From Patescibacteria group bacterium (GTDB lineage: Bacteria > Patescibacteriota > Minisyncoccia > Moranbacterales > DUUL01), in contig JAYEFY010000048.1 of NCBI GenBank assembly GCA_034658815.1, forward strand, positions 62,020 to 126,019: DNA of 64,000 bases, written 5' to 3'. Under the pieces are notes generated by a model. It saw nothing but the letters and a program-made list of their open reading frames with translations, was not told the origin of the DNA and ran no database searches. Positions 2,558 through 55,239 of the stretch are shown here, piece after piece (positions within the stretch are counted from its first letter, which is position 1; every line of letters starts with the position of its first letter). A program made the translations under genes and the position numbers.

Positions 2558-2562
2558 GAAAT

Positions 2563-2627
2563 CATTGGAAACATTATTCTCTGCGTATCAGCAGGCAGGT
2601 ATTGGTCTCGAGTACTCGGAACCATGA
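2563..2627 (-). repeat. GC-rich modular intergenic repeat, family 2 copy (inverted orientation)
   Basis: Shares ccgagtactcgg(a)accaatg and cagcaggcagg modules with the copy at 34120-34250 in reverse order/orientation. ttggaaac at 2565-2572. Confidence 0.4.
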
Positions 2628-2683
2628 TATTTTTGATAGGAGTTATTTGGAAATAATTATAATACACGAAATACAAAAAAATA

Positions 2684-5471: not shown

Positions 5472-5532
5472 AAAACAAAAAGCATTGTTGAAAAAAATAT
5501 CTTATGTTATCCTATAGTATAGTCCGTTAAGA

Positions 5533-5599
5533 GACTGCTCCCAAACGCTCTTCCTGCTGCAATTCTGAAATTTCGCAGCGAAATACGATACTTGGAAAC
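5533..5599 (+). repeat. GC-rich modular intergenic repeat, family 2 short copy
   Basis: gactgctcccaaac...gaaatttcgc...cttggaaac is related to the termini of the 34120-34250 copy. 35 nt upstream of the ftsK ATG. Also carries the cctgctgcaatt block shared with family 1. Confidence 0.35.
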
Positions 5600-5634
5600 A
5601 GTTTCATAAAACTAATAGTTTCTACTTCTAAATC

Positions 5635-9846: not shown

Positions 9847-9855
9847 CTAAAAATT

Positions 9856-11751: not shown

Positions 11752-11763
11752 AAATATACTAAA

Positions 11764-12630
11764 ATGCATCAGCGCTATAAGCAATTTCTAATATTTTTTA
11801 TTCTGATCCTTTTGCTTCTGCTTGTTGGTTTTGAAACTGTATCTCTTTCCTTCAAAAAACACAATCCACTTGAAGTACACTTTCTGGATATTGGGCAGGG
11901 CGATGCCACGCTTGTTCAATATCTTGGGTCATATCAGATCCTTATCGACGGAGGGCCGAATGGCAAAAAACTTTTGTCCGAATTGTCGAAAGTTATGCCG
12001 GCCACTGATCGCACGATCGAGATCGTAATTATGACGCATCCCGATAAAGATCATTTTGGCGGGTTGATCGATGCCATGAAAGCATATTCGGTAAAAATTG
12101 TTTTGTGCAATGGGCAGGAAGCGGATACGGAGATTTTCAGACAATATAAAAAAGTTATTGAAGAACAAGAGATAAAAGAATATACGTTGGGCGAAGGATC
12201 GAAAATATCTATTGGAAAAAAACTTGATCTGAGAAGTTTTAACCCCGATGTTATTGTGTCATCGAAAAGTGACAGAAATGAACACTCGATCGTGATAAGG
12301 ATGGACTATGGAGAAAATTCATTTCTTTTTACCGGTGACGCGGATTCCAGATCCGAAGCGGATATGTTAGAAGACCAAGAGGATGTTAATGTTGACTGGC
12401 TCAAAGTGGGGCATCACGGATCAAAACATTCAACAACAGAGAATTTTATCAAGAAAGTAACTCCGGAGTACGCGATCATTTCCTGCGGAAAGAATAATCG
12501 TTATGGCCATCCGCATGAGGATGTTCTTGGGCGACTGCGTTCACGCGATGTGGAAGTATTAAGGACTGACACGGTAGGGACGATCTTGGTGGAATGCTTC
12601 GATTCTCGAAGTAAATGTTCGGTGAGATGA
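11764..12630 (+). CDS. MBL-fold metallo-hydrolase, ComEC C-terminal domain encoded as a separate gene
   Basis: HFLDIGQGDATLV, MTHPDKDHFGG, VGHHGSKHS. N-terminal TM anchor. Confidence 0.8.
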   Translation: MHQRYKQFLIFFILILLLLLVGFETVSLSFKKHNPLEVHFLDIGQGDATLVQYLGSYQILIDGGPNGKKLLSELSKVMPATDRTIEIVIMTHPDKDHFGGLIDAMKAYSVKIVLCNGQEADTEIFRQYKKVIEEQEIKEYTLGEGSKISIGKKLDLRSFNPDVIVSSKSDRNEHSIVIRMDYGENSFLFTGDADSRSEADMLEDQEDVNVDWLKVGHHGSKHSTTENFIKKVTPEYAIISCGKNNRYGHPHEDVLGRLRSRDVEVLRTDTVGTILVECFDSRSKCSVR

Positions 12631-14362: not shown

Positions 14363-14484
14363 AAGAGTTTGCTTGAAAACTCCATATCCTGCTGCTGCAA
14401 TTTCTCCTCCAGAGGCGAACAAGTATATTTTAGCTGTCGCCTAGGCGAGATCGCAGCGGAAGAGGGTTTTCAAGCAAACTCTAA
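14363..14484 (+). repeat. structured intergenic element, family 1 copy B
   Basis: agagtttgcttgaaaactcc / gggttttcaagcaaactct outer stem. Inner hairpin tcgcc-ta-ggcga. ~80% identical to copy A with covariation. Confidence 0.6.
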
Positions 14485-14555
14485 GCTGTTTTATCGACAC
14501 ATTGAATTTTTATGTGAATATTTTGTTTTTCTTATAGCGCAGCCTATTCATAATT

Positions 14556-17863: not shown

Positions 17864-18287
17864 AGTCACAAATGCCACTTCAAGCAGGGTGCCTTTGTCG
17901 TTTTCGCAGTGTACCGCAGACGGATGCGTCCAAATAATAAAAGAAGAAAATTTTTTGTTTTTGCCCGCTAATATCATAATAAGCATTGCCTTTGTCGGCG
18001 AAAAAACAATTAAAGAACTGAATAATCGTTATAGAAGAAAGAACCGAGTGACTGATATCTTGTCGTTTTGTTATGAAAAAAAAGATGATACAATAGCGGG
18101 TGAACTGTTATTGTGCTGGCCGGTGATCAGAAGATACGCGCACGCGGATAAAAAAAATGAAAAAGATGAATTAAGAAAAAATATTGTTCACGGATTACTT
18201 CATGTATTTGGTTTTGAGCATAGCAAGATGATGTTTTCGTTGCAAGATGTTATAATAGAGAGGCTAAGTAAAAGATCTATTTCCTAA
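17850..18287 (+). CDS. ybeY: rRNA maturation endoribonuclease YbeY
   Basis: HGLLHVFGFEH zinc-binding motif. Start taken at the ATG at 17850 (the track ORF begins upstream at 17799), overlapping the yqeY stop by 14 nt. Confidence 0.8.
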   Translation: MNTIEVTNATSSRVPLSFSQCTADGCVQIIKEENFLFLPANIIISIAFVGEKTIKELNNRYRRKNRVTDILSFCYEKKDDTIAGELLLCWPVIRRYAHADKKNEKDELRKNIVHGLLHVFGFEHSKMMFSLQDVIIERLSKRSIS

Positions 18288-18350
18288 TTTTTGCCAGCGC
18301 TTCGCTCTACCTGCCCTGCCTATTGGCAGGCAGGGAGCTAGCTTGGAAAC
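18287..18350 (+). repeat. GC-rich modular intergenic repeat, family 2 copy (upstream of dgkA)
   Basis: aatttttgccagcgc...cctgccctgcc-tatt-ggcaggcagg hairpin...gagctagcttggaaac, ending 20 nt before the ATG. Confidence 0.45.
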
Positions 18351-18370
18351 TGATCTCTTAATACAAAAAA

Positions 18371-18727: not shown

Positions 18728-18866
18728 TTTTTTCAATGCAATCAATTGAATGAGAAGCGGCATTTTTCTGAAAGGAAGAAAGATATAACGAGATCATTCT
18801 TAAACTAATTCCTGCCAAAAATTGTCCCGGGTACTTGAGATCCACAGTCTTAAAAGAAGTTTCATA

Positions 18867-18983
18867 ATTTTTGCTAACGCCCTGCCCTGCCTACTTCTGC
18901 CTACCCGGTAAGCAGGCGCTTGCAAGCAGCGAGGCAACGTTTCGCCTTTCATGAAAGGCGGGGCAGGCAGCTAGGTTGGGAGC
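18867..18983 (+). repeat. GC-rich modular intergenic repeat, family 2 long copy
   Basis: aatttttgctaacgccctgccctgcc...internal hairpins (cgcttgc-aa-gcagcg, gcctttc-atg-aaaggc)...ggcggggcaggcagctaggttgggagc. Runs into the putative start of the LTD protein. Confidence 0.45.
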
Positions 18984-21246
18984 AGTGCCAATAAGAAATA
19001 AGAATAAAAATAAGAATTTGCGCCAGCCAGTACTTTTTTGCGCACTGGCCTGTTTTTGTTTTGGAGCCGCTTTTCTTGTTTTGAATGCAAATGCTGGTGA
19101 AATAAATGTTGGAAATGCTGTGAAGCATGTTGTAGCAGACGATAATATTTTGAATGACGGCAATGAGAAAGAAAATGAAAAGAATGAGAAGGGCAAAAAT
19201 AGTGAAGTTGAAAACACTCAAGGGATGAAAAAGGAAAAAGAAGATAATGAAGCTGAAGAAACTTCAGAAAAAAAAGGAGAAAAGAAAAATGAAATAAAAA
19301 TAGAAGAAAAAAACACAGGAGAAAAAAATCCGGAAACGGGCAAAAATAGTGAAGAAGTCAAAGATGGGCAGGGAGAGGCGAAAAATGTTGAAAAAGGAAC
19401 AGTTAGAGAAAAAAATAAAAGCACAGTAAAAAGGTTAAATGAAGGAAGTAGAAATGAGATTCCGGAAAAGGATGAAAAGGAGAAAGAAGGTGAAGGGAGA
19501 ATGATTGGATTGGTAATTAATGAAATTATGCTTGGCGATGGGAAAAGCTCAAAGAATGAATTTATTGAGCTTTACAATTTTTCAAACAAGAAAATTGATC
19601 TAGACGGCTTTTCATTGAAAAAAAGAACAAAAAGCGGCAGAGAAAGTAATTTGGTAAGTTCCGCAAAATTTTCGGGCAGTATTCAAGCAAGAGGATTTTT
19701 TGTGATTGCTCATCCAAATTATGCAGAAGCCATCAATGCGGATTTAAGATATTCAGGAGCCTCTTATTCAATTTCAAGGAATAATTCGATTTTTTTACGC
19801 AACTCGGACAAGGAAACCATTGATGTTTTGGGATGGGGAGAATGTTCGGGAGCCTGCGTCAAAGACGCTATTTGCAAAAGCAATCCCCCCAATGGACAAA
19901 GTTTAAGCAGAAAAGGATCAAACAAGCCTAAAAGTGAAAATGCCGAAGAGTTTGAAATTACCAGCATTGTAACGCCGGGAGAAAAGAACATTTTTTCAAG
20001 CAGAGTTAAATATCCTAAAGACATTTTCCTTAATGAGATTCTGCCTAATCCTGACGGCAGGGATAAAAATTCCGAGTGGGTTGAACTGCGAAACGAAAAT
20101 AAAAAAGAAATTTCACTAGACAGATGGAGCATTCAAAATCGCTCGGGGAAAAGATTCAAATTAGAAGATCTTACAATAAAACCCAAAGAACTGAGAGTCA
20201 TTTTTTTGAAAAACACCAGTTTTGTAATTCGTAATTCAAAAGAGAATTTACAGCTTATTGATCCGGCAGGAAATATTGTTGATGTTGTTGAGATCAAAGG
20301 ATCCGCGCCTTCCGGAATTTCTTATGGTTGGAGTACAGAAAGAGGATGGAGCTGGAACAGAAAAATTTCACCGGGCTCTTCCAATGTCATAAACAAACTG
20401 CCAAAAATCCACGTTAAAAAACAAAAAAAGATTTATAAAGATACTTATGCCGTGTTTGACGCGTCCAAAACAAAAGATGAAAATGGCGATAAGCTTAAAT
20501 TTCGCTGGGATTTTGGAGATGAGCATCGGAGTTATTTGAAAGAAACAAGACATAAATACGCCGAAACAGGAACATTCCACGTGTCCCTGGAAGTCAATGA
20601 CGGATATGAGATGGCGAGTAAGCATTTTAAAATTCGTGTAAGAAAATATCCCCGTTATAATTTACAAATAGTTCGGCTCATTCCAAATCCATCCGGATCT
20701 GATAGGGGCAATGAGTCAGTAATAATACGAAACAATACAAGAAAGAAAATAAATTTATGCGGATACTATGTTGCGACAGGAAGGAATAAAAGGATGAGCT
20801 TAAGGCATCCGATATATGATGATTTTATTATTGGTTCACGCAAAGAGAAGTCATTAAAGAATAGCGATATTTGTAAATTTTCACTCTATAATACAAAAGG
20901 AGCTGTTGTGCTTCTTGCTCCCGACGGAAGCAGAATAGATTCGGTGAAATATCAAAAAGATAAAATAGGCGACGATGACATTTATTTTAAAAATGATGAT
21001 AATACATGGGAATGGATTGAAGCAAAAGACGGTTCCTCAAAGGCAAACGCGGTTGCTGTTATTGATAAAAAGACCGAAGAAATTCAACAACAATTCCAAT
21101 GGTACAGGGTAACTAGGAATGAAAAACTGACAATATGTGAAACGGGCAGAAAACAGAAAATTGCAAATTGGATAAATAAAAGGAAAACGTGGCTTCAATA
21201 TTTAGAAAAAATTCTCAAAACACAGATTTTTGTTTTTGACGTGTAA
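18976..21246 (+). CDS. secreted protein with three lamin-tail domains (LTD) and a PKD domain
   Basis: Signal-peptide-like N-terminus. INEIMLGDG...EFIELYN, LNEILPNPDGRD..EWVELRN and RLIPNPSGSDRGNESVIIRN are LTD signatures. WDFGDEH...TGTFHVSLEVNDG is a PKD signature. The track start is a TTG and the true start is uncertain. Confidence 0.7.
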   Translation: MGAVPIRNKNKNKNLRQPVLFCALACFCFGAAFLVLNANAGEINVGNAVKHVVADDNILNDGNEKENEKNEKGKNSEVENTQGMKKEKEDNEAEETSEKKGEKKNEIKIEEKNTGEKNPETGKNSEEVKDGQGEAKNVEKGTVREKNKSTVKRLNEGSRNEIPEKDEKEKEGEGRMIGLVINEIMLGDGKSSKNEFIELYNFSNKKIDLDGFSLKKRTKSGRESNLVSSAKFSGSIQARGFFVIAHPNYAEAINADLRYSGASYSISRNNSIFLRNSDKETIDVLGWGECSGACVKDAICKSNPPNGQSLSRKGSNKPKSENAEEFEITSIVTPGEKNIFSSRVKYPKDIFLNEILPNPDGRDKNSEWVELRNENKKEISLDRWSIQNRSGKRFKLEDLTIKPKELRVIFLKNTSFVIRNSKENLQLIDPAGNIVDVVEIKGSAPSGISYGWSTERGWSWNRKISPGSSNVINKLPKIHVKKQKKIYKDTYAVFDASKTKDENGDKLKFRWDFGDEHRSYLKETRHKYAETGTFHVSLEVNDGYEMASKHFKIRVRKYPRYNLQIVRLIPNPSGSDRGNESVIIRNNTRKKINLCGYYVATGRNKRMSLRHPIYDDFIIGSRKEKSLKNSDICKFSLYNTKGAVVLLAPDGSRIDSVKYQKDKIGDDDIYFKNDDNTWEWIEAKDGSSKANAVAVIDKKTEEIQQQFQWYRVTRNEKLTICETGRKQKIANWINKRKTWLQYLEKILKTQIFVFDV

Positions 21247-21880: not shown

Positions 21881-24800
21881 ATGATTAGATATTCCACTTT
21901 CCATAAATTTACAGGAATCGTAGCTGCGATTTTTGTGCTCGCGGTTATTGGTGTCGCAAAACATACACAGGCGGCAGTTCCTATTATCTCATTCTCTGCT
22001 GATTTGACTGTGATTCCGGTTAATACTTCAACGAATCTTAATTGGGACGTATCAGATGCGGTTTCCTGCACGGCATCCGGATCATGGGGCGGCAATCAGC
22101 CATTGTCAGGTACATATGATACGGGGAATTTGCTAAGCGACGCAACATATGTTTTAACATGCGTGGGCGATTTTGGAGAAACAAATTCAAGCCAAGTAAC
22201 AATTACTGTCGCTGATCCGCCGGAACTGACATTTTTTGCCGACAACACGACTATTCCATATAATACTTCAACTGACTTAAACTGGTCGTCGACTAATGCT
22301 GATTCATGCATTGCTTCCGGAGCATGGTCTGGCGATGTCGGAGTATTCGGAACATATAACACCGGAAATCTTATTTCCTCAAAAACATATACGCTTCAGT
22401 GCGCTGGTCCCGGAGGGACAGCCATGAAATCAGTACAAATTACGATCGAATCGCCGACATTACCGCCGGAACTTGATTTTAGCGCTGACAATTATTTTAT
22501 TGAATATAACGAATCGGTAACTTTACAATGGAGTTCAACGAATACTGATGCTTGTGTTGCTTCAGGGTCATGGTCAGGGGCAAAACCTCTTTCCGGAACG
22601 CAGGGCTCGGGTAATCTTCAGAGTGATAAGAATTATGTATTAACGTGTACCGGGGAAGGAGGGAGTATCACGCGATTTGTGGCAATTGTTGTCGCGCCGC
22701 AAGTTACTGATCCTCCCGAACTTACGTTTACGGCTGACGATCAAGATATAGACTATGGTACGTCAACAACCTTAAATTGGACTTCAATTAATGCGCATAC
22801 CTGCACGGCGTCCGGATCATGGAGCGGCAACCGGCCGTTATCGGGTACATATGATACCGGAGCATTATACGCAACAAAGGCATATACTTTAACTTGCGTA
22901 GGTGATGGTGGAAGCGTTTCGCAAAAGATCACAATTAATGTCGGCGAAAACCCATTTCCTTCGCCGACATTGAGTTTTACTGCCGATAATAATGCGATCC
23001 CATACGATTCTTCAACGAATTTAAATTGGAGTGTGGCAAACGCGACATCTTGCACGGCGTCAAAAGCATGGTCAGGGGCAAAATCGCTTACAGGCAGTGA
23101 AAATACGGGGAATTTAACAAGCGATAAAATATATCGATTAACCTGTACGGGACCGGGCGGCTCAGCAACAAAAGACGTGGCAGTCATAGTCGGTGATCCC
23201 ACTGTTCCGCCGAGTGTTTCCTTTTGGGCTGATGATTATAGCGTGAATTATAATTCCGGGACAGTTGTTAGATGGACGTCTGATGACGCGAATTGGTGCC
23301 AACTTTCATATGGCGCTTCAACGGAAAATGTTGCGCTTGATGGCAGTTACGCGACGGGAAATCTATTTGACAACACAATCTATTCTCTATCATGCGGGAA
23401 CGCGTCCGGAACAACCACAAGAACGCTAACGATTACAGTGAATATGGTTGGACCCGCGCCGACGATTAATTTGTGGGCTGACGAGAATCCGATTGATTAC
23501 GGTTCTTCGACTACTGTTCGCTGGACAACTGCGAATGCCGATGAATGCCAGATGTCCGGTGTCGGCGATGTCTCTGTAAACGGATCAATCGGAACAGGAA
23601 CATTGTATAGTCCGAAAACGTACACATTGTACTGTGTCGGACCCGGAGGGGAAGATGAGGACAGTTTAACGATCAATATTCGTGAAGATACAATTCCTTC
23701 TGATCCGCCTGATCTGTTGTTTTGGGCTGACAGCTATTTGCTTCTGGAAGGAGAAAATACTGACTTGCATTGGATTGCGTCAAATGCTGATTGGTGCCAG
23801 GCTTCATTGGGATGGTCGGGAAGCAAACCAACCAGCGGTGATCAGAATACCGGATCGTTGTATACCACTACCAGTTACAAATTGAAATGTGGAAACATTC
23901 GGGGAAGCGTATCAAAAACGCTTACGATTGAAATTGGAAACTTGCCTGACGTACAGTTGGATTTTTGGGCCGATGAATACAGTGTTCCGAATAATGGCAA
24001 CACAACTTTGCGTTGGAATTCAGCAAACGCGAACTATTGCCGGACTCTTGGAGGTGAATGGGGTTGGAATAACCCCAAGCCGCTTAATGGAACGGAAAAT
24101 ACCGGACCACTTTCGAATTACGCGAATTTATATGTTTTGCAATGCGTAAACTGGCTTTCATCGGAAACGAAGTCCGTAACAATATTTGCGGGTGATCCTC
24201 CTCCAAGCGTGTCATTCTACGCGGCCAGTTATACTATTGGTTATAATACGCCGGCAACACTCTTTTGGAATGCGTTTAATTCCACATATTGTGAAGCCTG
24301 GTCGAATAATCCGGAGGAACTAACCTGGAACGAAAATAACATGGTAGTTTCCGGATCGCAGCAGACAACAAATCTTAGGAGTAATACCAGGTTCTATATT
24401 CGCTGTTATGGTCCCGGCGGGACCATAACGAAAAGATTAACAGTAAGGGTAGCGTCTCCGAACGCTCAAGTTCCGACAATAAGCTTTTGGGCGGATGACT
24501 ATATTGTACCCGAAAACGGATCTACCGTTGTGCATTGGACAAGCCAGAACGCGGATGGATGCAAGGCCATTTCAACTCCTGATGTCGTTGGGTGGAGCGG
24601 AAATAAAACGACAAGCGGAAACAATAACGTAGGGCCATTTATTCAAAATTCGGAACTGCAGCTTATTTGCTGGAACGGGTCAGCGTCCAGTTCAGCGATA
24701 CTTAATATTCAGGTCGGGGAAGGTACGATTGCGAGACCAAGCTTAAGTTTCTGGGCGGATGCTTATTCTTTGGCAGCCGGAGATTCCACGTGGCTTCGCT

Positions 24801-25675
24801 GGAGTGTACTTAACGCTAATGGCGGCACTTGCGTAGCTTCAGGAGACTGGAGCGGCAATAAAAGTACGGGAACAGGCAGTGAAAACACCGGTCCGATAGC
24901 GGTGCCTAAACATTATATTCTCACATGCAGTAATGAAGCAGGAGAAGTCTCGAGCTTTGTTGATATAAACGTAGGAGGACCGGCTGCTCCGCCTACACTG
25001 ACATTTCTTGCTGATGACTATGATATCGAAGACGGACAGGAAGTAATGCTGACATGGACAAGTACCAATGCGGCAAATTGTTTTGCAACCAATGATCCAT
25101 CCGGGCAATGGAGCGGAAGTGTGATGTTAAACGGCAATAAAAATGTTACGCCGCATTTTACGACAACATACGCATTAACGTGTATAGGGGACGGAGGCAG
25201 TATTACGGTAAATGTGCGGGTTTCAGTAGCCAAAGTTATTGTTTGCCCTTCAGATGTACAACTCAAAAAAGGCAGAATCAGGCAGCTTGAGGCGTGGTAC
25301 AAAGAAGATGCTGATATTAATTTCTCATGCGAGAATCTTGCCGGGGCAATGAATGTAACAAGTAAAACCGTTCCGTTTCCAACCAGCTGGTCTACTTCTG
25401 ACAGCAGTCTTGTTTCTCTGCAGGGAACGCCGGGTTTGATCAAAGCAGAGGATTATACTATGGGAACGGTAAATGTGTGTGCGGAATATAAAGAAATTAA
25501 GGGGTGCGCCGGAGTGCAAGTTGTCTTAACATGCTGGCAATGCGAAACTGACGGATCATGCTCTCCCGTTCCCGTTCCGCATGACACATGTCCGGAACCG
25601 TATTTTTCAGATAAAGCGTCATGCCTGCGTGTTTGCGGGTTAAAGTGGGGAAGTTGGAGAGAAGTTACTCCGTAA
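21881..25675 (+). CDS. giant cell-surface protein with ~13 tandem ~90-aa Ig-like repeats, a Big_2-like domain and a Cys-rich C-terminus
   Basis: N-terminal signal/TM. Repeat consensus P.L.F.AD......STNLNW.S.NA..C.ASG.WSG...L.GT..TGNL.....Y.L.C.G.GG. C-terminal ...CWQCETDGSCSP...C...CGL. Confidence 0.75.
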   Translation: MIRYSTFHKFTGIVAAIFVLAVIGVAKHTQAAVPIISFSADLTVIPVNTSTNLNWDVSDAVSCTASGSWGGNQPLSGTYDTGNLLSDATYVLTCVGDFGETNSSQVTITVADPPELTFFADNTTIPYNTSTDLNWSSTNADSCIASGAWSGDVGVFGTYNTGNLISSKTYTLQCAGPGGTAMKSVQITIESPTLPPELDFSADNYFIEYNESVTLQWSSTNTDACVASGSWSGAKPLSGTQGSGNLQSDKNYVLTCTGEGGSITRFVAIVVAPQVTDPPELTFTADDQDIDYGTSTTLNWTSINAHTCTASGSWSGNRPLSGTYDTGALYATKAYTLTCVGDGGSVSQKITINVGENPFPSPTLSFTADNNAIPYDSSTNLNWSVANATSCTASKAWSGAKSLTGSENTGNLTSDKIYRLTCTGPGGSATKDVAVIVGDPTVPPSVSFWADDYSVNYNSGTVVRWTSDDANWCQLSYGASTENVALDGSYATGNLFDNTIYSLSCGNASGTTTRTLTITVNMVGPAPTINLWADENPIDYGSSTTVRWTTANADECQMSGVGDVSVNGSIGTGTLYSPKTYTLYCVGPGGEDEDSLTINIREDTIPSDPPDLLFWADSYLLLEGENTDLHWIASNADWCQASLGWSGSKPTSGDQNTGSLYTTTSYKLKCGNIRGSVSKTLTIEIGNLPDVQLDFWADEYSVPNNGNTTLRWNSANANYCRTLGGEWGWNNPKPLNGTENTGPLSNYANLYVLQCVNWLSSETKSVTIFAGDPPPSVSFYAASYTIGYNTPATLFWNAFNSTYCEAWSNNPEELTWNENNMVVSGSQQTTNLRSNTRFYIRCYGPGGTITKRLTVRVASPNAQVPTISFWADDYIVPENGSTVVHWTSQNADGCKAISTPDVVGWSGNKTTSGNNNVGPFIQNSELQLICWNGSASSSAILNIQVGEGTIARPSLSFWADAYSLAAGDSTWLRWSVLNANGGTCVASGDWSGNKSTGTGSENTGPIAVPKHYILTCSNEAGEVSSFVDINVGGPAAPPTLTFLADDYDIEDGQEVMLTWTSTNAANCFATNDPSGQWSGSVMLNGNKNVTPHFTTTYALTCIGDGGSITVNVRVSVAKVIVCPSDVQLKKGRIRQLEAWYKEDADINFSCENLAGAMNVTSKTVPFPTSWSTSDSSLVSLQGTPGLIKAEDYTMGTVNVCAEYKEIKGCAGVQVVLTCWQCETDGSCSPVPVPHDTCPEPYFSDKASCLRVCGLKWGSWREVTP
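21974..25217 (+). repeat. in-frame tandem coding repeats, ~270-bp period, ~13 units (diverged)
   Basis: Periodic recurrence of ...NW.S.NA..C.ASG.WSG... blocks in the translation. Units are ~40-60% identical. Confidence 0.6.
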
Positions 25676-26490: not shown

Positions 26491-26636
26491 AAATAATTGG
26501 CTGAATTATGGAAAGCAAAAAACGCCTCTTTGTGCCTGCACAACTTTAAAGCGTGAAAAGGCTGTCTTCAAATTAACTTCTGCTCAAAATCGTTAATTTT
26601 AATTCACAGAGCCCATTTGAAAATAGTCCCATAAAT

Positions 26637-28247: not shown

Positions 28248-28550
28248 GTGTCCAAGATGTACTCATCTAGTACAGTTCTAGAAAAATATGTAAAAAACAA
28301 GAAATCAAATGACTATATTTTTGAAAGCACGCGAGGAAGCAAATTAACCGAAAGATCTGTTCAAAAAATATTTAGACAGGCGCTAAAAAAGTCTAAAATA
28401 AAGAGACAAGCAAGTTGTCATAGTCTAAGGCATAGTTTTGCTACGCATTTACTTGAAAACGGAGTTGATATAATATATATACAAGAACTATTGGGACATA
28501 AAAGATTGGAAACAACACGAATTTACCAAGCACTTTTAAATAAAAGATAA
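28248..28550 (+). pseudogene. tyrosine recombinase/integrase, C-terminal catalytic fragment only
   Basis: [36 protein letters not shown] (R...H..R...Y catalytic region). No room upstream for the N-terminal ~200 aa. Very AT-rich. Confidence 0.6.
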
Positions 28551-28572
28551 AATATTATTTATTTATGCTTTT

Positions 28573-28836
28573 ATGTGTTATGTTTATTTATTAAAAAGCA
28601 AAAAGATTGATCATTGGCATTATGTGGGTTCAACAAATAATTTAAAAAAGAGATATAAAGAGCATCAGAAAGGAAAAGTATTCTCTACAAAAAATTATGA
28701 ACCATTTATTTTAATTTATTATGAAGCATTTTTATCAGAGAAAGACGCGAGAGAAAGAGAGAAACAATTAAAATACAAAGGAAATTCTTTAAAGTTTTTG
28801 AAAAAGAGACTTGAGTATAGTTTAATTGAGAATTAA
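28573..28836 (+). CDS. GIY-YIG nuclease family protein
   Basis: VYLLKS...WHYVGSTNNLKKRYKEH and downstream E..Y.EAF....A.ERE.QLK match the GIY-YIG pattern. 87 aa. Confidence 0.7.
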   Translation: MCYVYLLKSKKIDHWHYVGSTNNLKKRYKEHQKGKVFSTKNYEPFILIYYEAFLSEKDAREREKQLKYKGNSLKFLKKRLEYSLIEN

Positions 28837-30983: not shown

Positions 30984-31094
30984 CGGCAAAATTGTTATTA
31001 GGGATTGTTGCCAAACTAACTTGCTCTGAAAAAAAGCACACTTTATTAAATATTTTCTATTATTTTTTGCAGCTAAAATTATTATTTTTCCGTA

Positions 31095-34090: not shown

Positions 34091-34119
34091 ATAAAATGTA
34101 AGATATAACAAGGGACTGT

Positions 34120-34250
34120 CTCCAAACTAACTTCTACCGAAAATTTCCTAATCCCGAGTACTCGGGACCAATGCCCCAAGCAGGTGTTCGCTAAAAGCGG
34201 GGCAGTACTCCGTTTTTAGCAGGCGACAGGCAGGGAAGCTGGCTTGGAAA
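34120..34250 (+). repeat. GC-rich modular intergenic repeat, family 2 full-length copy (upstream of fba)
   Basis: gactgtctccaaac...gaaaatttcctaatcccg | agtactcgggaccaatgcc...GC hairpins | cagggaagctggcttggaaac, ending 16 nt before the ATG. Confidence 0.45.
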
Positions 34251-34265
34251 CACCCCTATAAATTT

Positions 34266-35123: not shown

Positions 35124-35450
35124 TAGCCGGCTAGTGATACATCATTTAAAAACCTAACCGTAGCCCTTATCGATTTATCATTAAAAACCTGACTGACTGA
35201 AGGATAAATATAATTAAGACTATCTTTTTTAACAAATTAAATTTCTTTTAACTTTTTATCAATTTTTCTTTTTAATTCTGCTGGATTAAGTGTAGCATAA
35301 ATCTTTCTTAATTTCTCTTTTTCTTTTTCAGAAATGTAGAAAGATTCGGTTTTCGTAAAAAGCAAAAAACAGGCCAATAAAAAAGAGGATTAGAAAAACT
35401 TTGTGAATATGTTTTTCCAATCCCCGCGAAAGTTAGTTTTTGAGTCCTGA

Positions 35451-35783
35451 TTATTCCTCTAAGGATTTTAAATACTCCTTAGCATTTGCAGCTTCTCTAA
35501 TTGCATGGAGCAATATACTCGAGTTAAGCAATTTGGGCGCATCTTCTACTATTGTAGTAAGGCTAGCCACTATGTCAGTTGTCATTTCATTTGTTATTGT
35601 TTCTATATCTCTATGAGACAATAACTCTATATGTCCCCTTAGCCATGATACATTATCATGCAATAGATTTGTACCTTTAAGTAAGCTGGCCATTAAAGTA
35701 GCAGTCGAATTAGCTATTGCTTCAGCTGATTCACTTGCTCTTCTCAGATTTTTATTTTTTAATGATTTGCTTCTATCTTCCAC
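35451..35783 (-). CDS. hypothetical protein
   Basis: ORF only, within the AT-rich IS-associated region. Confidence 0.3.
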   Translation of the reverse strand: MEDRSKSLKNKNLRRASESAEAIANSTATLMASLLKGTNLLHDNVSWLRGHIELLSHRDIETITNEMTTDIVASLTTIVEDAPKLLNSSILLHAIREAANAKEYLKSLEE

Positions 35784-35935
35784 TTTTCCCTCCTTATCCT
35801 ACTCACAATAATTTAAGTGTTTTTTCCAAAGAACATTTTTTATTGCCTTAAGCCAATCTCAAGGCGATACAAAAGCGTAGCAAAACACAATAAAAAAGTC
35901 AAGGCCTATTTTATGAGTTTTTATTTCACTTAGCA

Positions 35936-35969
35936 TAATCACTTTTATGCATATGCATAAAAGTGATTA
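35936..35969. repeat. perfect 34-bp palindrome taatcacttttatgcat|atgcataaaagtgatta at the 3' side of the transposase gene
   Basis: Read directly. Followed by a second hairpin cctctcgtcacg-gt-cgtgagcagagg at 35990-36015. Confidence 0.7.
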
Positions 35970-36069
35970 CATTAAAATTTTTTACCTCTCGTCACGGTCG
36001 TGAGCAGAGGTGAAATTTGGAAATTGTTATTATAATAAGTTTCGCTTGTTGAGAATTCACTTGTTGCGG

Positions 36070-36957
36070 CTAAGTAAAGCGCGTGCAATAAATAAACGAC
36101 AAAAAGATGCCAACCAGTTTTCTAACATGAGTCCAGTTCTTTTGCTCGATATGAGCATTGTCATTTTTCTTGTAAGGTCTGCCTCTGGTAAATTCAATAT
36201 CCTTTTCAATGCAATGTCTGTATAGCTGCCAATTGATAAATTCGCCTCCATTATCAGGATCAATTCCTTTTAAAGAAAAGGGTAGTCTTTCTTCGATATT
36301 ATCTAATCCTTTTTTAATCCTGATTTGAGCTTTTCCCATGACAGCTATGCTTTCTGTCCATTGAGTGCTGATATCAGTAAAAGTAAGGCTATTTATGAAT
36401 TCTCCAGAAGCAGAGTGTCCGCAATGAGCTACCGTATCCAATTTGCCAAATCCAGCTCTTTTCTCATCCCAAGAGGAAGTTTTAATGGGGATTTGTTTTT
36501 TTAACATACTTCCCGGTTTAGTAGTGGAAAATACTTTTTTCTTTTTGATTCTCTTGCTTCTTTTCAGTCTTCTATCAATAGTAGCTGATGATATCTTTAA
36601 TAATTTCTCTTTAACAGAATCAGTAAAAGAAACTTCTTCAAACTTTTCTAAAACTTCAATATATTCAGGAAGCATCGGAGCTAAATTCTGTCCGCAAGGA
36701 TAATCAAATATTTCCCAAATCTTTTTTAACTTCACAATAACATAACCGTCATATTTCTCCCTTCTTTTTCTGTTGATCGGATTGGCATAATCCAAATCTA
36801 TCTTAACGGAAAGTATTTGAATTAAATAGTTTCTGTTTAAAGTTGTGTTAACGCAAAGCTCATCTAAGATACTCCCTTTGCCTGTTCTGTTTGATTTTAA
36901 ATATCTCACCTTAACCTTTTTAACTAATTCTTTTTTAGATTTTTGACTCATTTCCAT
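36070..36957 (-). CDS. DDE transposase (rve integrase-core, IS481/IS3-like), possibly C-terminally truncated
   Basis: N-terminal HTH-like region. LDTVAHCG (D1), GIDPDNGGEFIN (D2), NAHIEQKN (E) in DDE spacing. Very AT-rich. Confidence 0.7.
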   Translation of the reverse strand: MEMSQKSKKELVKKVKVRYLKSNRTGKGSILDELCVNTTLNRNYLIQILSVKIDLDYANPINRKRREKYDGYVIVKLKKIWEIFDYPCGQNLAPMLPEYIEVLEKFEEVSFTDSVKEKLLKISSATIDRRLKRSKRIKKKKVFSTTKPGSMLKKQIPIKTSSWDEKRAGFGKLDTVAHCGHSASGEFINSLTFTDISTQWTESIAVMGKAQIRIKKGLDNIEERLPFSLKGIDPDNGGEFINWQLYRHCIEKDIEFTRGRPYKKNDNAHIEQKNWTHVRKLVGIFLSFIYCTRFT

Positions 36958-37270
36958 AGAGATAGTTATTAATTATTACTATCTCCAAGGTTAGATTTTA
37001 AATGATTTATCGTATAGGCTTTGGGTTAGGTTTTGGATGATTTAATTCGCGGCTTTGACAGTTTCTCTAAAAAAATGTACAGTACATGGCAGGGATTTGA
37101 ATAGATATAAATATAGAGTAGAAATGCTTAACAAATAGATAAAAACATTGCAGCCGCTTGCAACTGAAAACATTAGCAAAGTGATTTATTCAATGGAAAC
37201 CAATTTTTTTTTGCACACACATTTGTTTTTGAATGTTCTTTTGTGCTTAAAATAAACACTGTTTAAATTT

Positions 37271-39954: not shown

Positions 39955-39956
39955 TA

Positions 39957-40083
39957 AGAGCCTGTTTGAAAATCCCACATCCTGCTGTAATTTCTTCTCC
40001 AGAAGCCAGAGGCAGACAAGCATATTTTGGCTGCCATGCTTCGGCAGGATCGCAACGGAGAAGGGTTTTCAAACAGACTCTTA
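39957..40083 (+). repeat. structured intergenic element, family 1 copy C
   Basis: aagagcctgtttgaaaatccc / gggttttcaaacagactctt outer stem. Inner hairpin ctgcc-atgcttc-ggcag. 12-nt insertion relative to A and B. Starts 3 nt after the yjbQ stop. Confidence 0.6.
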
Positions 40084-40168
40084 GTTTGTAAGTTCGTTAA
40101 AATGTTATTGGAAACAATACCTTATCGCATTCGGAAGAATGCGTTTTTTGATGCAAAGACCGCGGTGC

Positions 40169-41013: not shown

Positions 41014-41234
41014 CTTACCAGTCATGGAGATTGAGAAAATTACCGGCTAATTAGTACTTTCCAAGATTATTTCCCAAGGTTCAACCTCAAGTATTCTGGG
41101 TTGAACCTTAAAACCGGAATTTTTTACGCTGGAGCAGGCTTGCAGCCCGGTCCAGCGCGAGAAACTAAAGGACCGGGCTGCTAATACACATTTTAACCGG
41201 AATTAGCTTTTTAGAGCTCATTCTAGCAAAAAGT

Positions 41235-42287
41235 GCCATATGTGTTTAGACATTACCAAAATGTTTTATGCACACTCTTTTGTCGGTCTTTGTATTTTAA
41301 TTAAATTATAATTTTCTAAAAATTGATTAGGGCTTTTTCCATTTAAGCTACAATGCCTTAAATCATTGTAATACATATTCCATAATCTAACACGATATTT
41401 CAATTCATCAATACTAGCAAACTTTTCTCGAGAGTATAATCTTCTCTGATCGCTTCCATGGCTTCTTTCAACAGTGCCATTCTGAGCTGGCTTTCCTGGA
41501 TCAATTAAGTAGTGAATAATTTTATTCTTGGCGCAAAACTTATCCAAGTAGTGAAGCTTGGGGTTAAAGGGGTCGGCGCTTTTCAAATAACCGGTATATC
41601 TATTGGTAAATGTGGAATGATTATCTGTCTTTACGGCTCTAATTTCAAAAGGAGCCTTTCTAATTATTTTTTCTAGAAACTTAACAGAGTGGCAATTAGA
41701 TTGTTCGTCATATATTTCCATGTGTCTCCACCTGCTGGACAAGTCTATAGCTGTATACTGATAATATTGCTTATTGGCGACTTTTCCCGGAACATACTTA
41801 ACATCTATTTCAATTATTTCTCCGGGTTTCAATTCACTTCTAATATATTTATACTTCACTCTCTTAATTCTATATTTCCTGACTAAGCCTTCTGTTTTTA
41901 ATATTTTACCGACAGTTCTTTCGTGAATATTGATATTTTCATCTTTTAAATCCCATTTTATCTTTAAAGCGCATTCTTTCTTTTCTTTCCTTAATTCAAT
42001 AACCCTTTCTTTTACTCTAATGGAAGTTTCTTTGGGATTAGTTTTGGGCCTAGTTGATTTAGGAATCAATTCCTCCTCCCCATATTTCTTATACAAGGAA
42101 ATCCATCTTTCTAAACTTCTTTGGCTGTAAGGACATACTTTAGCGGCGTCTTTTAATTTTACTTCTTTGTTATAGATGGGAAGCACCCACCTTAACCTTT
42201 CTTCTTTAATTGTTTTTGGCATATTTATACACATACATGAGAATAATACTATTCTCAGAAAACCGCCATAGGTGTGTGCACATTACC
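41235..42287. mobile_element. IS481-like element bounded by imperfect 24-bp direct repeats
   Basis: gccatatgtgtttagacattacca at 41235-41258 and gccataggtgtgtgcacattacca at 42264-42287 (20/24 identical, same orientation) bracket the transposase gene. No clear terminal inverted repeats found. Confidence 0.45.
41266..42234 (-). CDS. IS481-family transposase (HTH + rve DDE integrase core)
   Basis: N-terminal HTH. KTDNHSTFT (D2), DPGKPAQNGTVERSHGS (E region). 322 aa single ORF, typical of IS481. Confidence 0.8.
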   Translation of the reverse strand: MCINMPKTIKEERLRWVLPIYNKEVKLKDAAKVCPYSQRSLERWISLYKKYGEEELIPKSTRPKTNPKETSIRVKERVIELRKEKKECALKIKWDLKDENINIHERTVGKILKTEGLVRKYRIKRVKYKYIRSELKPGEIIEIDVKYVPGKVANKQYYQYTAIDLSSRWRHMEIYDEQSNCHSVKFLEKIIRKAPFEIRAVKTDNHSTFTNRYTGYLKSADPFNPKLHYLDKFCAKNKIIHYLIDPGKPAQNGTVERSHGSDQRRLYSREKFASIDELKYRVRLWNMYYNDLRHCSLNGKSPNQFLENYNLIKIQRPTKECA

Positions 42288-42408
42288 AGTTTCGCTTGAC
42301 AAAAGATTAAAAGTGGTGTAGAATGTGGCTGAAAGTAGAAGAACAAGTTTTTTAAAAACCTAGATCCGAAATGAAGAACGGATTAAAAGAATATACGGAG
42401 GCATAACT

Positions 42409-47042: not shown

Positions 47043-47212
47043 AAGGGAGCCGTTTCCAGACCAGCTTCTGCCAAAAGTTGTTGATTTTGTTTGTTGTTAT
47101 TGTCTGTAGACAGTATTGATACTGGATACTCGGAATGGTTTTTGATGAGAATCAATTAAGAAATAGTCCCGCATATATTTTATAATTTCAAGAGACAAGA
47201 GCTGAAATAAAA

Positions 47213-48472
47213 ATGCAAACAAAACAGGCCTTTACTATTTATGATATTGAAGCTGATGAATTCAAAACTCCTGTTCAAAGCCTTCCCTTATGGAAACTTT
47301 TACTTGAAGCCAGCGGAGTTTTTGTAGTAATTACGTTTATCGTTTTTTTTATTGCCAACTATCAGTACATTCAAAGCCAGCTTGTCGATTGGAGACAAGT
47401 AAAAACCGATGGGAAAGATTTTGTTAAGGATAATGATAATGATAAAATGCCTGACTGGTGGGAGCAGTCTTACGGGCTTAATACAGCAGACTCAATGGAT
47501 GGGATGAAAGACGAGGATAATGATCTTATGCCGAATATTATGGAGTTTCAATTCGGCACGGATCCGCGAAATCCGGACACTGACGGCGATGGATATTTTG
47601 ACGGTGAAGAATATCTGAATGGGTATAATCCAAATGGAGTTGGAAGAATTGACACGGATAAAGATGGAATTCACGATTGGTGGGAAGAATCGAACGGTCT
47701 CAACAAAAAAGACCCAGCTGATAGCTTGCTTGATTATGATAATGATCAGCTCAATAATAAAGAAGAATATGAATATGGCACTAATCCGCGAAATCCGGAC
47801 ACTGACGGCGATGGTTATTCTGATAAGCAAGAAATTAATAGAGGATCTAATCCAATAGGCCGGGGTTTTCTTAATGAGACATCAAAGAATAGCGGCAAAG
47901 ATAAAGATCTTGATAAGCTTGAAATAGATTACGAAAATTTATTTGGAACAGATCCTGAAAATAGAGACACTGACGGCGACGGTTTTAATGACTATCACGA
48001 GTTGACAAGAGGATATGATCCCTCAGGTTCCGGCATGATAGACGCCGTTATTGAAATTCCATCAATTGATGTCGAGGCGCCGATTATTTGGTCTCAAAGC
48101 GAAAAGGAAAAGGAAATTTTGAATGATCTCAGCGATGGAGTCATTCATTATCCGGGAAGCGCTTTCCCCGGGATGCGCGGCAATGTTTATATAACCGGAC
48201 ACAGCAGTTTTTACAGTTGGAGTAAAAGCTCATGGAAAGAAATTTTTAAAGACATCGAACGGCTGGAAAATGGCGACGAAGTGATATTCCACCTGAAACT
48301 TAAAAATAAAAAAAATATTGATATTGTTTATGAAATTTGCTTGTCGGAAATTGTGCAGCCGGATGACGTTCGCTTGTTCAGAGATTATGAAGGATATGAA
48401 TTGACGCTTGTTACATGCTGGCCGATTGGAACAGATCTTAAACGCCTGATGGTAAAGGGCGTTCTTAAGTAG
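47213..48472 (+). CDS. sortase-family transpeptidase with N-terminal TM and three thrombospondin type-3-like Ca-binding repeats
   Basis: N.RNPDTDGDG(Y/F).D x3 (TSP3 D.D.DG..D). C-terminal sortase fold with conserved His (YITGHSSF) and TLVTCWP (TLxTC catalytic Cys). Confidence 0.7.
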   Translation: MQTKQAFTIYDIEADEFKTPVQSLPLWKLLLEASGVFVVITFIVFFIANYQYIQSQLVDWRQVKTDGKDFVKDNDNDKMPDWWEQSYGLNTADSMDGMKDEDNDLMPNIMEFQFGTDPRNPDTDGDGYFDGEEYLNGYNPNGVGRIDTDKDGIHDWWEESNGLNKKDPADSLLDYDNDQLNNKEEYEYGTNPRNPDTDGDGYSDKQEINRGSNPIGRGFLNETSKNSGKDKDLDKLEIDYENLFGTDPENRDTDGDGFNDYHELTRGYDPSGSGMIDAVIEIPSIDVEAPIIWSQSEKEKEILNDLSDGVIHYPGSAFPGMRGNVYITGHSSFYSWSKSSWKEIFKDIERLENGDEVIFHLKLKNKKNIDIVYEICLSEIVQPDDVRLFRDYEGYELTLVTCWPIGTDLKRLMVKGVLK

Positions 48473-51702: not shown

Positions 51703-51752
51703 TAAGAAACTGCTGCCAAATTAACTCCTATCAAAAATTGTTAATTTTATTT

Positions 51753-51805
51753 ACCAAGCTGTTCACGAATAGCAGGCATGGCAGGTAGGAAGCTAGCTTG
51801 ATAAC
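51753..51805 (+). repeat. GC-rich modular intergenic repeat, family 2 short copy (upstream of pilC)
   Basis: ccaagct...agcaggcatggcaggtaggaagctagcttgataac. Contains the perfect palindrome AAGCTAGCTT. Ends 13 nt before the ATG at 51819. Confidence 0.4.
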
Positions 51806-51818
51806 AATCCCAATATTT

Positions 51819-53033: not shown

Positions 53034-53044
53034 ATATAGGAATT

Positions 53045-53092
53045 GTTTCCAAACCAGTTTCCCTGTTTAGGCGGGATTAGGAAATTTTCCCC
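53045..53092 (-). repeat. GC-rich modular intergenic repeat, family 2 short copy, inverted orientation
   Basis: The reverse complement reads gaaaatttcctaatcccgcctaaacagggaaactggtttggaaac, matching both termini of the 34120-34250 copy. Confidence 0.45.
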
Positions 53093-53382
53093 AATGACGA
53101 CGATCAACCTGTTTCTTCGGCGGGAGTGAGCAAGATCTTTGTCCGCCCGTATTAGCGGCACGTTTGGGCAGGCTGTCCTAGAAAAGAATTTATCCACGCA
53201 TTCATTAATAGGCTCATACTCATGCTCATGGTCTTTTCTGTTTTGCCCGGTCTGCCGCTAGGTCGGACAGGTAGGTGTAGGGGAAAGGGCGGATGAAATT
53301 GCAAGAATAATATAAGTCCGATCCAATCAATGGTAGAAATAAGTTTTCCGCGGCAATCAAGACTCAAAATTGAAGACTATGC

Positions 53383-53519: not shown

Positions 53520-55037
53520 ATGAGCAAAAATATTTCTGATATTACACAGGAAATTGATGATGTGCTTGAAATGAGCGCATCGGCAAAAAAATCTTTAAAG
53601 AGCAATAAAAATAGTTCTCTAATGAAACAGCTTCTTGAAGATCATCCTATGAAGATGCTGCAAGTCGGTGAAAAAATAGAAGGGCTTGTTGTAGGAATTG
53701 ATTCCAAAGCATTATATATCGATCTTGAATTATTCGGTTCGGGCATTGTCTACGGCAAAGAAATTAAAGATGGCTTTGGGGCAAACAGAAAAAAACTTGA
53801 AATTGGCGATAAAGTTGTGGCTGTTATACAAGATCTTGAAAATGAAGATGGCTATGTCGAGTTATCGATTCGTGAAGCTGTTCTTGAGGAAGTATGGAAG
53901 GATCTTATCCAAAAGAAAGATAGCCGTGAACCGGTTGATACAAAGATTCTTGATGCAAATAAAGGCGGTCTTATGGTTGAAATTAATGGTGTAACGGGAT
54001 TTATGCCCGTAAGCCAGTTGACATCGGAACATTATCCTCGCGTTGAAGACGGGGATAAAAATAAAATTCTTGAGATCTTAAGGACTTATATCGGTACCGA
54101 AATGTCGGTAAGTGTTTTAGATGTTGATCAACAGGAAGACAAACTTATTGTTTCTGAAAAAGAGGCAAATCGTGACAAGGAAAAAACAGCGATTTCCGAG
54201 CTTAAGGTCGGAAATATAATTGAAGGAGACGTGAGCGGGGTTGTTGACTTTGGCGCGTTTGTCAAATTTTTTCCGCCTTCAAAAAAAGGTTCAATGAGAG
54301 AAGAAGATAAACTCGAAGGACTTGTGCATATATCACAACTTGATTGGCAGTTAATTGATGATCCGCGAAAAATTATTAAAGTTGGTGATAGGATCAAAGC
54401 AAAAATTATCTCCATTGATGACACGAGAATTTCACTATCTGTTAGAGATCTCAAGAAAGATCCTTGGGTTGCAGCCAATGAAAAATATGGCAAGGACGAT
54501 ATCGTCAAAGGAAAAGTGCACAAAATCAACCATTTCGGAGCATTTGTATATCTTGATAACGACATTCATGGACTGGCCCATGTTAGCGGTTTTGAAGCAT
54601 ATCCGCAGAAAGGCATAGACGAAATTGTTAAAATAGGTGAGGAATACATGTGGCAAATTATGTCGATAGAGCCAAGCGAGCACCGTATGGGGCTTAAATA
54701 TGCTGGTGAAACCGAAAAAGTGAAGCCCTCTAAAGTTGGCGAACGAAAGGAGATCAGAGAGCCGGGAAATAAAAAAGAAGATAAAAAGAATTTTAAGAAC
54801 AGGAAGAAGAAAGAAGACAAAAAAGAAATGAGAAAAAGCGTGAAAAATGGAGGAGAGCCGAAGGATAAAAAGGAAGAGAGAAAGAAGAAAAAAGACGATG
54901 ATAAAAATGGCAAGAAGAAAAAACGAGACGGTAAGAAAGAATCGGATAAGAAAAAAGAGCCGAAAGATAAGAATGGCGGCGAGAAAAAAGAAAAGAAGGA
55001 TAAAAAGATAAAAACCGATAATAAAAGTCTGTCTTAA
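53520..55037 (+). CDS. rpsA: 30S ribosomal protein S1 (four S1 domains) with K/E-rich tail
   Basis: Repeated S1 OB-fold domains (G..V.G.V......GAFV.), ~120-aa Lys/Glu/Asp-rich C-terminus. Confidence 0.85.
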   Translation: MSKNISDITQEIDDVLEMSASAKKSLKSNKNSSLMKQLLEDHPMKMLQVGEKIEGLVVGIDSKALYIDLELFGSGIVYGKEIKDGFGANRKKLEIGDKVVAVIQDLENEDGYVELSIREAVLEEVWKDLIQKKDSREPVDTKILDANKGGLMVEINGVTGFMPVSQLTSEHYPRVEDGDKNKILEILRTYIGTEMSVSVLDVDQQEDKLIVSEKEANRDKEKTAISELKVGNIIEGDVSGVVDFGAFVKFFPPSKKGSMREEDKLEGLVHISQLDWQLIDDPRKIIKVGDRIKAKIISIDDTRISLSVRDLKKDPWVAANEKYGKDDIVKGKVHKINHFGAFVYLDNDIHGLAHVSGFEAYPQKGIDEIVKIGEEYMWQIMSIEPSEHRMGLKYAGETEKVKPSKVGERKEIREPGNKKEDKKNFKNRKKKEDKKEMRKSVKNGGEPKDKKEERKKKKDDDKNGKKKKRDGKKESDKKKEPKDKNGGEKKEKKDKKIKTDNKSLS

Positions 55038-55153
55038 AAGTCCACGCTCTACTGCAAATTCCAGATTCCGGCTGTTCCGAGTGCTCACTCAGGATTTATC
55101 ACTCGTCCCATCACTCGCGAACGATGGAACTCGCTCGCCGCGGCGAGTACTCC

Positions 55154-55225
55154 GCATATGCTTCCTTGTGCTTCATCCCGCCTCGGCGGGATCGCGGCGA
55201 AAGAAATTTTCAAAACAGGCTTTTA
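55154..55225 (+). repeat. structured intergenic element, family 1 partial/degenerate copy D (3' half)
   Basis: gcatatgc...cccgcc-tc-ggcgggatcgcggcgaaagaaattttcaaaacaggctttt aligns with the 3' half of copies A-C. The 5' half is replaced by an unrelated GC-rich hairpin region. Confidence 0.45.
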
Positions 55226-55239
55226 GTAATGACAAAGTG

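Follow-up and report, generated by a model that had tools for sequence, protein, structure and literature searches.

A family of short intergenic repeats resembling miniature non-autonomous DNA transposons in a Patescibacteria genome

In the window, that is, the whole 64-kb stretch of Patescibacteria DNA that was analysed, the spacer between tpiA and fba is occupied by a repeat (copy D in Table 1) that belongs to a dispersed family, here termed family 2. The family comprises ten copies (A-J) of 73-208 nt each, which together amount to 1.16 kb, or 1.8% of the window, at a density of one copy per 6.4 kb. All ten lie between genes, at sites unrelated to one another, and none of the ten contains an ORF. 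As an earlier note on this DNA had described, copies occur in both orientations; eight are on the plus strand and two on the minus strand, a split that is not significant (n = 10), yet is not 1:1.

Seven places had been listed in the earlier note, and family-related sequence was confirmed at all seven. Several of the listed copies were truncated, however, and three copies (26558-26631, 31001-31082 and 47044-47170) had been missed; the additional copies were found by a repeat search of the window and by reading of the sequence. The focal interval, 34120-34250, falls within a copy that extends from 34102 to 34258 by comparison with an empty site. Likewise, a 208-nt composite at 18782-18989 has 18867-18983 as its second half, the interval 51753-51805 makes up the 3′ half of a copy of 107 nt (51705-51811), and the supposedly short inverted copy at 53045-53092 is the 3′ third of a 140-nt minus-strand copy (53039-53178), the 5′ end of which, GGACAGCCTGCCCAAAC, lies at 53178. 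The names given to the neighboring genes dgkA, fba, pilC (T2SSF) and ftsK hold by Pfam and, for fba, also by class II aldolase homologues.

Table 1. Copies of family 2 in the window, sub-features of copy D, and the corresponding sites in contigs of a close relative.
Feature	Position	Strand	Length	Location and form	Site in relative
Copy A	5530..5606	+	77 nt	35 nt 5′ of ftsK; TA-flanked	
Copy B	18270..18357	+	88 nt	half-copy; between ybeY and dgkA	
Copy C	18782..18989	+	208 nt	composite; between dgkA and LTD/PKD protein gene	
Copy D (focal)	34102..34258	+	157 nt	between tpiA and fba; bounds from L013 empty site	empty in L013; tpiA-fba spacer 18 nt, ...ATGTAA followed by TAAATTTATG
Copy D, 5′ inverted repeat	34111-34135				
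Copy D, block 2 (AAAATTTCCTAAT)	34140-34152				
Copy D, hairpin CCCGAGTACTCGGG	34153-34166				
Copy D, 3′ inverted repeat	34234-34257				
Copy E	51705..51811	+	107 nt	between pilB and pilC; background GC	empty in L141; pilB-pilC spacer 9 nt
Copy F	53039..53178	-	140 nt	inverted; between pilC and S1-domain gene; TA both sides	
Copy G	2558..2660	-	about 103 nt	inverted; between LigD_N-domain gene and P-type ATPase gene	
Copy H	26558..26631	+	74 nt	short form; between efp and minus-strand rpsR/ssb	
Copy I	31001..31082	+	82 nt	between GT2 glycosyltransferase gene and galT; TA both sides	empty in L013; GT2-galT spacer 27 nt
Copy J	47044..47170	+	127 nt	5′ of sortase gene	L013 keeps two termini alone, fused as GGGAACAGTTTTTTAGAAATGGTTCC

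Alignment of the copies revealed three conserved parts and a variable interior. The conserved parts are a 5′ block, (A)GGGACTGTCTCCAAACTAACTTCT, a 3′ block, GGGAAGCTRGCTTGGAAACANNCC, and block 2, which is present in many copies. Intact copies begin with the conserved 5′ end AGGGACTGTCTCCAAACTAACTTCT and finish with the 3′ end GGAAGCTGGCTTGGAAACACCCCT, which is its imperfect inverse (consensus (A)GGGACTGTCTCCAAAC(TAACTTCT) at the 5′ end and (GGAAGCTGGC)TTGGAAACANNCC at the 3′ end). When the 3′ block is reverse-complemented (AGGGGTGTTTCCAAGCCAGCTTCC), about 18 of 25 positions agree with the 5′ block, and the element thus terminates in imperfect inverted repeats of roughly 16-25 nt. An intact element measures about 75-160 nt. 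The palindrome that had been pointed out within the 3′ block, AAGCTAGCTT, is perfect in copies B and E only.

The interior varies in both length and sequence, and contains modules that are common to subsets of the copies: CCCGAGTACTCGGGACCAAT in C, D and G, CCTGCC(C)TGCC...GGCAGGCAGG in B, C, D and E, and GCCTTTCnnGAAAGGC in C and in a copy from a more distant relative (L138, described below). Interior deletions reach bare termini. Copy B consists of block 2, the CCTGCC hairpin and the 3′ inverted repeat. In copy C, a short unit extends to about 18868 and a GC-rich unit resembling B comes after it; the second half of C is homologous to the L138 copy, and C also has GATATAAC and the 5′ block in common with D. 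Copy F shares with D an exact 18-mer, GAAAATTTCCTAATCCCG, which occurs only at 34139 (plus strand) and 53072 (minus strand) in the window, and 20 of 22 nt of the 3′ block. In copy G, which is rearranged or partial, 51 nt are 78% complementary to D, and 17/17 nt and 18/19 nt are common with E and D, respectively. The 5′ block of copy I is intact and its 3′ part degenerate. Copy A, which combines family-2-like termini with an interior like that of another repeat family in the window (family 1), is the weakest member. The GC content of about 60% ascribed to the element holds only for the interior of long copies (59% in D) and not for the interval 34120-34250 (52%); long copies as a whole have 45-51% GC, and five copies (29-39%) do not depart from the background (39% in the window).

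The copies are considerably diverged from one another. Blocks shared at 90% identity or more are 15-22 nt long and no longer, which fits an old, decaying family; the high identity between copies that is expected of recent MITE bursts was not found. The 3′ block pattern, with up to 3 mismatches, has 10 matches in the window against 1.8 expected, and a degenerate 23-nt pattern of the 5′ block has 3 exact matches against 0 in shuffles. When each copy was left out in turn and sought with the 5′ block, D, E and H were recovered at E < 0.01 (E at 1e-5 and H at 0.002) and J, C, G and I weakly, whereas A and F were not recovered and owe their membership to other blocks.

The window was compared with two contigs of one assembly (GCA_030626045.1), namely L013, a 17-kb contig reached via an fba homologue with 87% identity, and L141, reached via a pilC homologue with 91% identity. 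L013 is collinear with 28.3-48.5 kb of the window, with a nucleotide identity of 84-91%; L013 and L141 together give 86-91%, and the relative is about 89% identical overall. Clean extra segments of the window relative to these contigs coincide exactly with four copies (D, I, E and J; Table 1). The remnant of J in L013 indicates that family 2 is older than the divergence of the two genomes and that its interiors are subject to deletion; apart from this remnant, no family 2 copy was found in 21 kb of the assembly. At copy I, a perfect TA duplication is seen relative to the empty site, which reads ..TTAT-TA-TTTTTCC, the filled site being ..TTAT-TA-[GGGATTG..AAAATTAT]-TA-TTTTTCC. Copies A and F and the L138 copy also have TA on both sides. 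The flanks are not uniform, however: D has GA on the left and E is without the right-hand TA, so that the duplication is ambiguous at two of the four compared sites.

In a further contig, L138 (Logan SRR22936140; fba 85% identical), a family 2 member occupies the same TA of the tpiA-fba spacer as copy D. In its ends and block 2 this member is nearly identical to D, but inside it is similar to the second half of C rather than to D. Identity in fba and rny groups the three sequences as ((window, L013), L138), and the occupancy of L138 reflects either separate insertions of different subfamily members at a favored site or an insertion of older date that was cleanly lost in L013. No family 2 copy was found in 21 kb of L142 (pilC 73% identical) or in 21 kb of L144 (hisS 85% identical at the amino acid level, about 70% at the nucleotide level), and in L139/L140, from the same sample as L144, an unrelated spacer is present at the tpiA-fba site. 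The scarcity or absence of copies in relatives indicates that family 2 is lineage-restricted and has expanded in the genome of the window. Wider scans gave chance matches alone: 12 singletons in unrelated phyla with the 3′ block pattern in a collection of genome contigs that is without the source genome and its relatives, at least 120 loci with the 5′ block pattern in metagenome contigs (those listed all being chance by nhmmer, and none of them having an upstream GGGACTG), and 3 matches in viral contigs. Copy D had no blastn match among plasmids and phages.

These observations establish a lineage-restricted repeat family with inverted-repeat ends, no ORF, insertion/absence polymorphism and one clean TA duplication. 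Together with the dispersal of the copies in both orientations and the empty orthologous sites in a close relative, they favor the interpretation, to which a probability of roughly three in four is assigned, that family 2 consists of miniature non-autonomous DNA transposons (MITE-like elements), as the earlier note had preferred. Prokaryotic MITEs are 50-800 bp in length, have terminal inverted repeats of at least 10-15 bp and target site duplications of 2-10 bp, encode no transposase and are mainly intergenic (PMC11602168). Family 2 agrees with this description in its size and lack of coding capacity, its terminal inverted repeats of at least 10-15 bp, its dispersed intergenic copies and the evidence of mobility from filled and empty sites. 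A transposase that binds the ends would move the copies in trans, and insertion would favor TA in AT-rich intergenic spacers; a compact genome would tolerate copies nowhere but in such short intergenic gaps. After insertion, the copies would undergo internal deletion and decay. Those inside operons (tpiA-fba and pilB-pilC) are probably co-transcribed with the genes, the ends could then fold into a long closing stem, and any effects on neighboring genes would be incidental. Several features fit MITE-like elements less well: the target duplication is not uniform (D and E), the copies are far more diverged than those of a recently active MITE family, the strand split is 8:2, and D and the L138 copy agree in their ends and block 2 despite different interiors, which could point to selection on these blocks instead of separate insertions.

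A further point against MITE-like elements is that no cognate transposase, or parent IS with matching ends, was found within the 64-kb window. Judging from the TA flanks, an IS630/Tc1-like enzyme would be our guess for the mobilizing activity. Two IS481-like elements in the window were considered as the autonomous partner and rejected, because their ends and duplications (about CGGCT, ~5 nt) are unrelated to family 2. One of them is a 1.28-kb segment at 41018-42294, absent from L013 and with a possible TTACCAG direct repeat at both ends, which contains an IS481-family-like transposase ORF with rve and HTH domains (41266-42234, minus strand; NF033577, 204.7 bits, just under the cut-off). The other, 1.9 kb long, separates fba from the gene for RNase Y (35133-37049), is absent in L013 and L138, and has inverted ends of ~19-45 nt (ATCATttAAAACCTAACC), a duplication of about CGGCT and two minus-strand ORFs (36070-36957 and 35451-35783); the 295-aa ORF is faintly IS481-like (29.5 bits) and is without a Pfam match. 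This insertion may be a divergent IS.

The ambiguous duplications at D and E, where no clean duplication is seen against the empty sites, and the 8:2 strand bias would also be expected of elements of the REP/REPIN type, that is, single-stranded hairpins that a RAYT-like transposase of the Y1 (HUH) type moves with no duplication of the target. Family 2 resembles REP, BIME and REPIN sequences, which are mobilized by RAYT (PMC2817692), in being strictly extragenic, palindromic, abundant and lineage-specific and in forming modular mosaics, with GC-rich hairpins in an AT-rich genome. Its end blocks, on the other hand, do not read as self-complementary hairpins, a conserved GTAG-like tetranucleotide head is lacking, the TA duplication is clean at copy I and TA stands on either side of several copies, and neither a RAYT nor any other Y1 transposase was seen among the ORFs of the 64-kb window that were scanned against Pfam. 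Mobilization of this type is considered quite improbable for family 2.

The proximity of many copies to start codons has a simpler explanation than regulation. Copies do lie 20, 16, 13 and 35 nt from the ATGs of dgkA, fba, pilC and ftsK, as had been reported, and seven of the ten copies point to the next gene, their ends falling 13-35 nt ahead of an ATG. Because the empty spacers are only 9-27 nt long, an insertion that spares both genes must be close to an ATG. The suggestion that the elements are a dispersed cis-regulatory module, whether a promoter, an operator of one regulon or a structured 5′ leader RNA, could also draw on the 10-nt palindrome in two copies and on a -10-like TATAAA at the fba junction. 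However, the downstream or neighboring genes (dgkA, fba, pilC, ftsK, galT, sortase, efp, P-type ATPase and LTD protein) are functionally unrelated, three copies are inverted relative to the adjacent gene (F, G and H, the last facing away from efp because rpsR/ssb are on the minus strand), and in the nearest relative the corresponding genes are without the elements; the operator or promoter module of a regulon that the earlier note had raised as a possibility is thus not borne out. An outward-facing regulatory end fared no better. A promoter consensus is not enriched: within the copies or close to them, 6 sigma-70-like matches were counted where the rate for the whole window predicts 5.2 (a consensus scan being a weak test), none of them at a conserved position of the element, and no terminator-like sites were found in the copies by a scan. 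Most of the TATAAA by fba was present in the flank before insertion, as the empty site has TAATAAATTT, and a TTGGAA lies only 7 nt from it. No Rfam family and no covariation speak for a leader RNA. A role as a dispersed regulatory module is therefore very unlikely, and by analogy with Correia elements individual copies may carry an incidental promoter or RNase site.

Two copies affect the apparent limits of genes. The stop codon of ybeY is the TAA of TTTCCTAAT within block 2 of copy B (window 18264-18287), so that the last few codons (..KRSIS) are in element sequence. In copy C, the mechanically called TTG start of the LTD/PKD ORF (18976) and a GTG (18985) are within the 3′ inverted repeat, and in this sense a copy overlaps the 5′ end of the LTD ORF, as had been stated; the overlap is probably an artefact of ORF calling, the signal-peptide-like region beginning near a TTG at 19018.

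The minimum free energy structures of A, B, D, H and the L138 copy close on the two termini and are better than those of shuffled sequences (z from -2.3 to -4.8; A, -2.5; D, -2.9; B, -4.5, with AGATC/GATCT closing; H, -2.3). In contrast, E, F, G, I and J fold no better than shuffles (z from -0.9 to +1.5), the pairing of the termini having decayed in E (z = +0.3). Apparent covariation of the closing stem (GGGAUUG/CAAUUCC, GAGACUG/CAGUUUC, UAGGA/UCCUA) was discounted by a comparison of duplexes between 5′ and 3′ blocks across copies with those within a copy (-16.9 vs -17.1 kcal/mol, cross vs own; permutation p = 0.46). Since pairing across copies equals pairing within a copy, the complementarity is a family-level inverted repeat and not copy-specific RNA covariation. 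A curated structured RNA family was rejected on this ground and for want of an Rfam match: the whole window has zero matches at the gathering thresholds, the best E-value on copy D being 0.32, and no tRNAs were found.

Folding of the termini also bears on whether family 2 is a domesticated element, that is, a once-mobile repeat whose conserved blocks now serve the host. By analogy, such blocks might act in a transcribed hairpin processed by an RNase III-like enzyme, as a stabilizer or insulator of cistrons, or as a platform for binding of a nucleoid protein. In favor of this reading, predicted folds that close on the termini are much more stable than those of shuffles in half of the copies, one copy per 6.4 kb is a very high density for a genome of small size, HU and RNase Y are encoded adjoining copy D, and D and the L138 copy have nearly identical ends and block 2 at the same site with the interior replaced. 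There is a precedent in Correia elements, for which cleavage of the inverted repeats by RNase III, as well as binding of IHF, has been reported (PMC10969869). Against this, five copies have no such fold, copy-specific compensation is absent, the closest relative is without the element at three of the four sites with no visible replacement, and the pattern at the tpiA-fba site is also explained if different subfamily members inserted independently at a favored TA. Domestication is accordingly judged unlikely. A broader proposition, that the end blocks and block 2 are selected, either in a domesticated processed hairpin or through CPR-specific re-targeting without a recognizable transposase, is held to be improbable too. 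If it were true, the hairpin would uncouple or stabilize cistrons in very tightly packed operons, and the occupancy of the tpiA-fba TA in two lineages would reflect function or site-specific targeting rather than chance.

As MITE-like elements, the members of family 2 are undescribed, yet they are of an ordinary known kind, and how such elements are thought to work is unchanged by them. The closest parallels are Correia elements, which have terminal inverted repeats of about 26 bp and a TA duplication, and other MITEs that duplicate TA; REP/REPIN and BOX/RUP/ERIC repeats are more remote. Like these Correia/NEMIS elements of Neisseria, the first prokaryotic MITE (PMC10969869), family 2 elements are about 100-200 bp in length and ORF-less with inverted-repeat ends and TA-type flanks, occur in full-length and internally deleted forms, lie in many cases just 5′ of genes and inside operons, and have ends that can form a long RNA hairpin. 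Unlike them, they have no sequence similarity to Correia/NEMIS, reside in a Patescibacteria MAG and are much more diverged, and no counterpart of the Correia sigma-70 promoters, IHF site and RNase III cleavage (PMC10969869) is detectable in their sequence. Family 2 resembles the MITEs of the IS630/Tc1-mariner group (e.g., Nezha of cyanobacteria) in its inverted-repeat ends, insertion at TA and, for copy I, clean duplication, but differs from them in that no IS630-family transposase or parent IS was found in the window and in the ambiguity of the TA at two of four sites. With the pneumococcal BOX, RUP and SPRITE and the enterobacterial ERIC repeats (PMC3049150) it shares small modular intergenic repeats, a variable number of modules and nested or adjacent insertion; those repeats are co-transcribed with neighboring genes (PMC3049150), and the same is presumed for family 2. 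The sequences and the host are unrelated to those of BOX and ERIC, however, and the A-B-C module grammar of BOX was not seen.

No description of MITEs in Patescibacteria was found in a literature search. The genomes of these bacteria (CPR) are small and tightly packed, yet they carry active or recently active selfish DNA, here represented by family 2, a possibly related second family and the two IS481-like elements. The presence of selfish DNA in streamlined genomes implies that intergenic 'motifs' should not be regarded as regulatory by default. Family 2 elements also mark strain-level insertion polymorphisms, and they can break assemblies and shift the calling of gene ends, as at the LTD ORF start and the ybeY stop.

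The second family, family 1, which had been noted as the first repeat family, is present in the window at 5353-5474, 14363-14486, 39956-40085 and 55023-55228 and in L013 at 4197-4303. Its copies are 122-206 nt in length, have near-perfect inverted ends of ~19 nt, (TA)AGAGCCTGTYTGAAAAC, and are mostly flanked by TA on both sides. This family is polymorphic as well: L013 has a copy where the window is empty (about 32207), and the window copy at 39956-40085 is absent in L013. Copy A of family 2 has interior motifs in common with family 1 (TCCTGCTGCAATT and TCGCAGCGAAA), and an end model of family 1 matches copy A at E = 0.13. Families 1 and 2 may therefore be related, although the resemblance of the sequences is suggestive at most.

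Other differences between the window and its relatives involve coding segments. L013 has an intact 262-aa tyrosine recombinase (Phage_integrase) at 125-913, where the window (28248-28836) has only the C-terminal 100 aa of an integrase and, after it, an 87-aa GIY-YIG ORF; the integrase gene of the window appears to have been disrupted or replaced. On the 3′ side of pilC, L141 (3579-4125) carries a 107-aa ORF without a Pfam match, and the window (53037-53382) carries copy F and about 200 nt of unrelated GC-rich sequence, which indicates that the segment was replaced. The in-frame repeats at 22056-25014 inside a 1264-aa ORF (periods of about 240-500 nt) and the TSP3-type calcium-binding repeats at 47543-48023 in a sortase-domain protein are ordinary surface-protein repeats, unrelated to family 2.

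The more distant relatives have intergenic repeats of their own, located in L144 at about 8715-8830, 9770-9890 and 11760-11890 and also at 7170-7640, and in L139 at 780-900. One of the L144 families has a conserved core, ..CACATTTCTTTGTCAAAACCTCTG..CCTCGAACTGCACTCAAA.., enclosed by outer stems that differ from copy to copy and stay complementary (ACGTGTTTG/CAAACACGT, TTTACAATTTTG/CAAAATTGTAAA and CTCGTTTGA/TCAAACGA), a pattern that is more RNA-like, or more like a hairpin target, than that of family 2. Palindromic spacers of the ATTCGAAT type were also noted among the repeats of L144 and L139.
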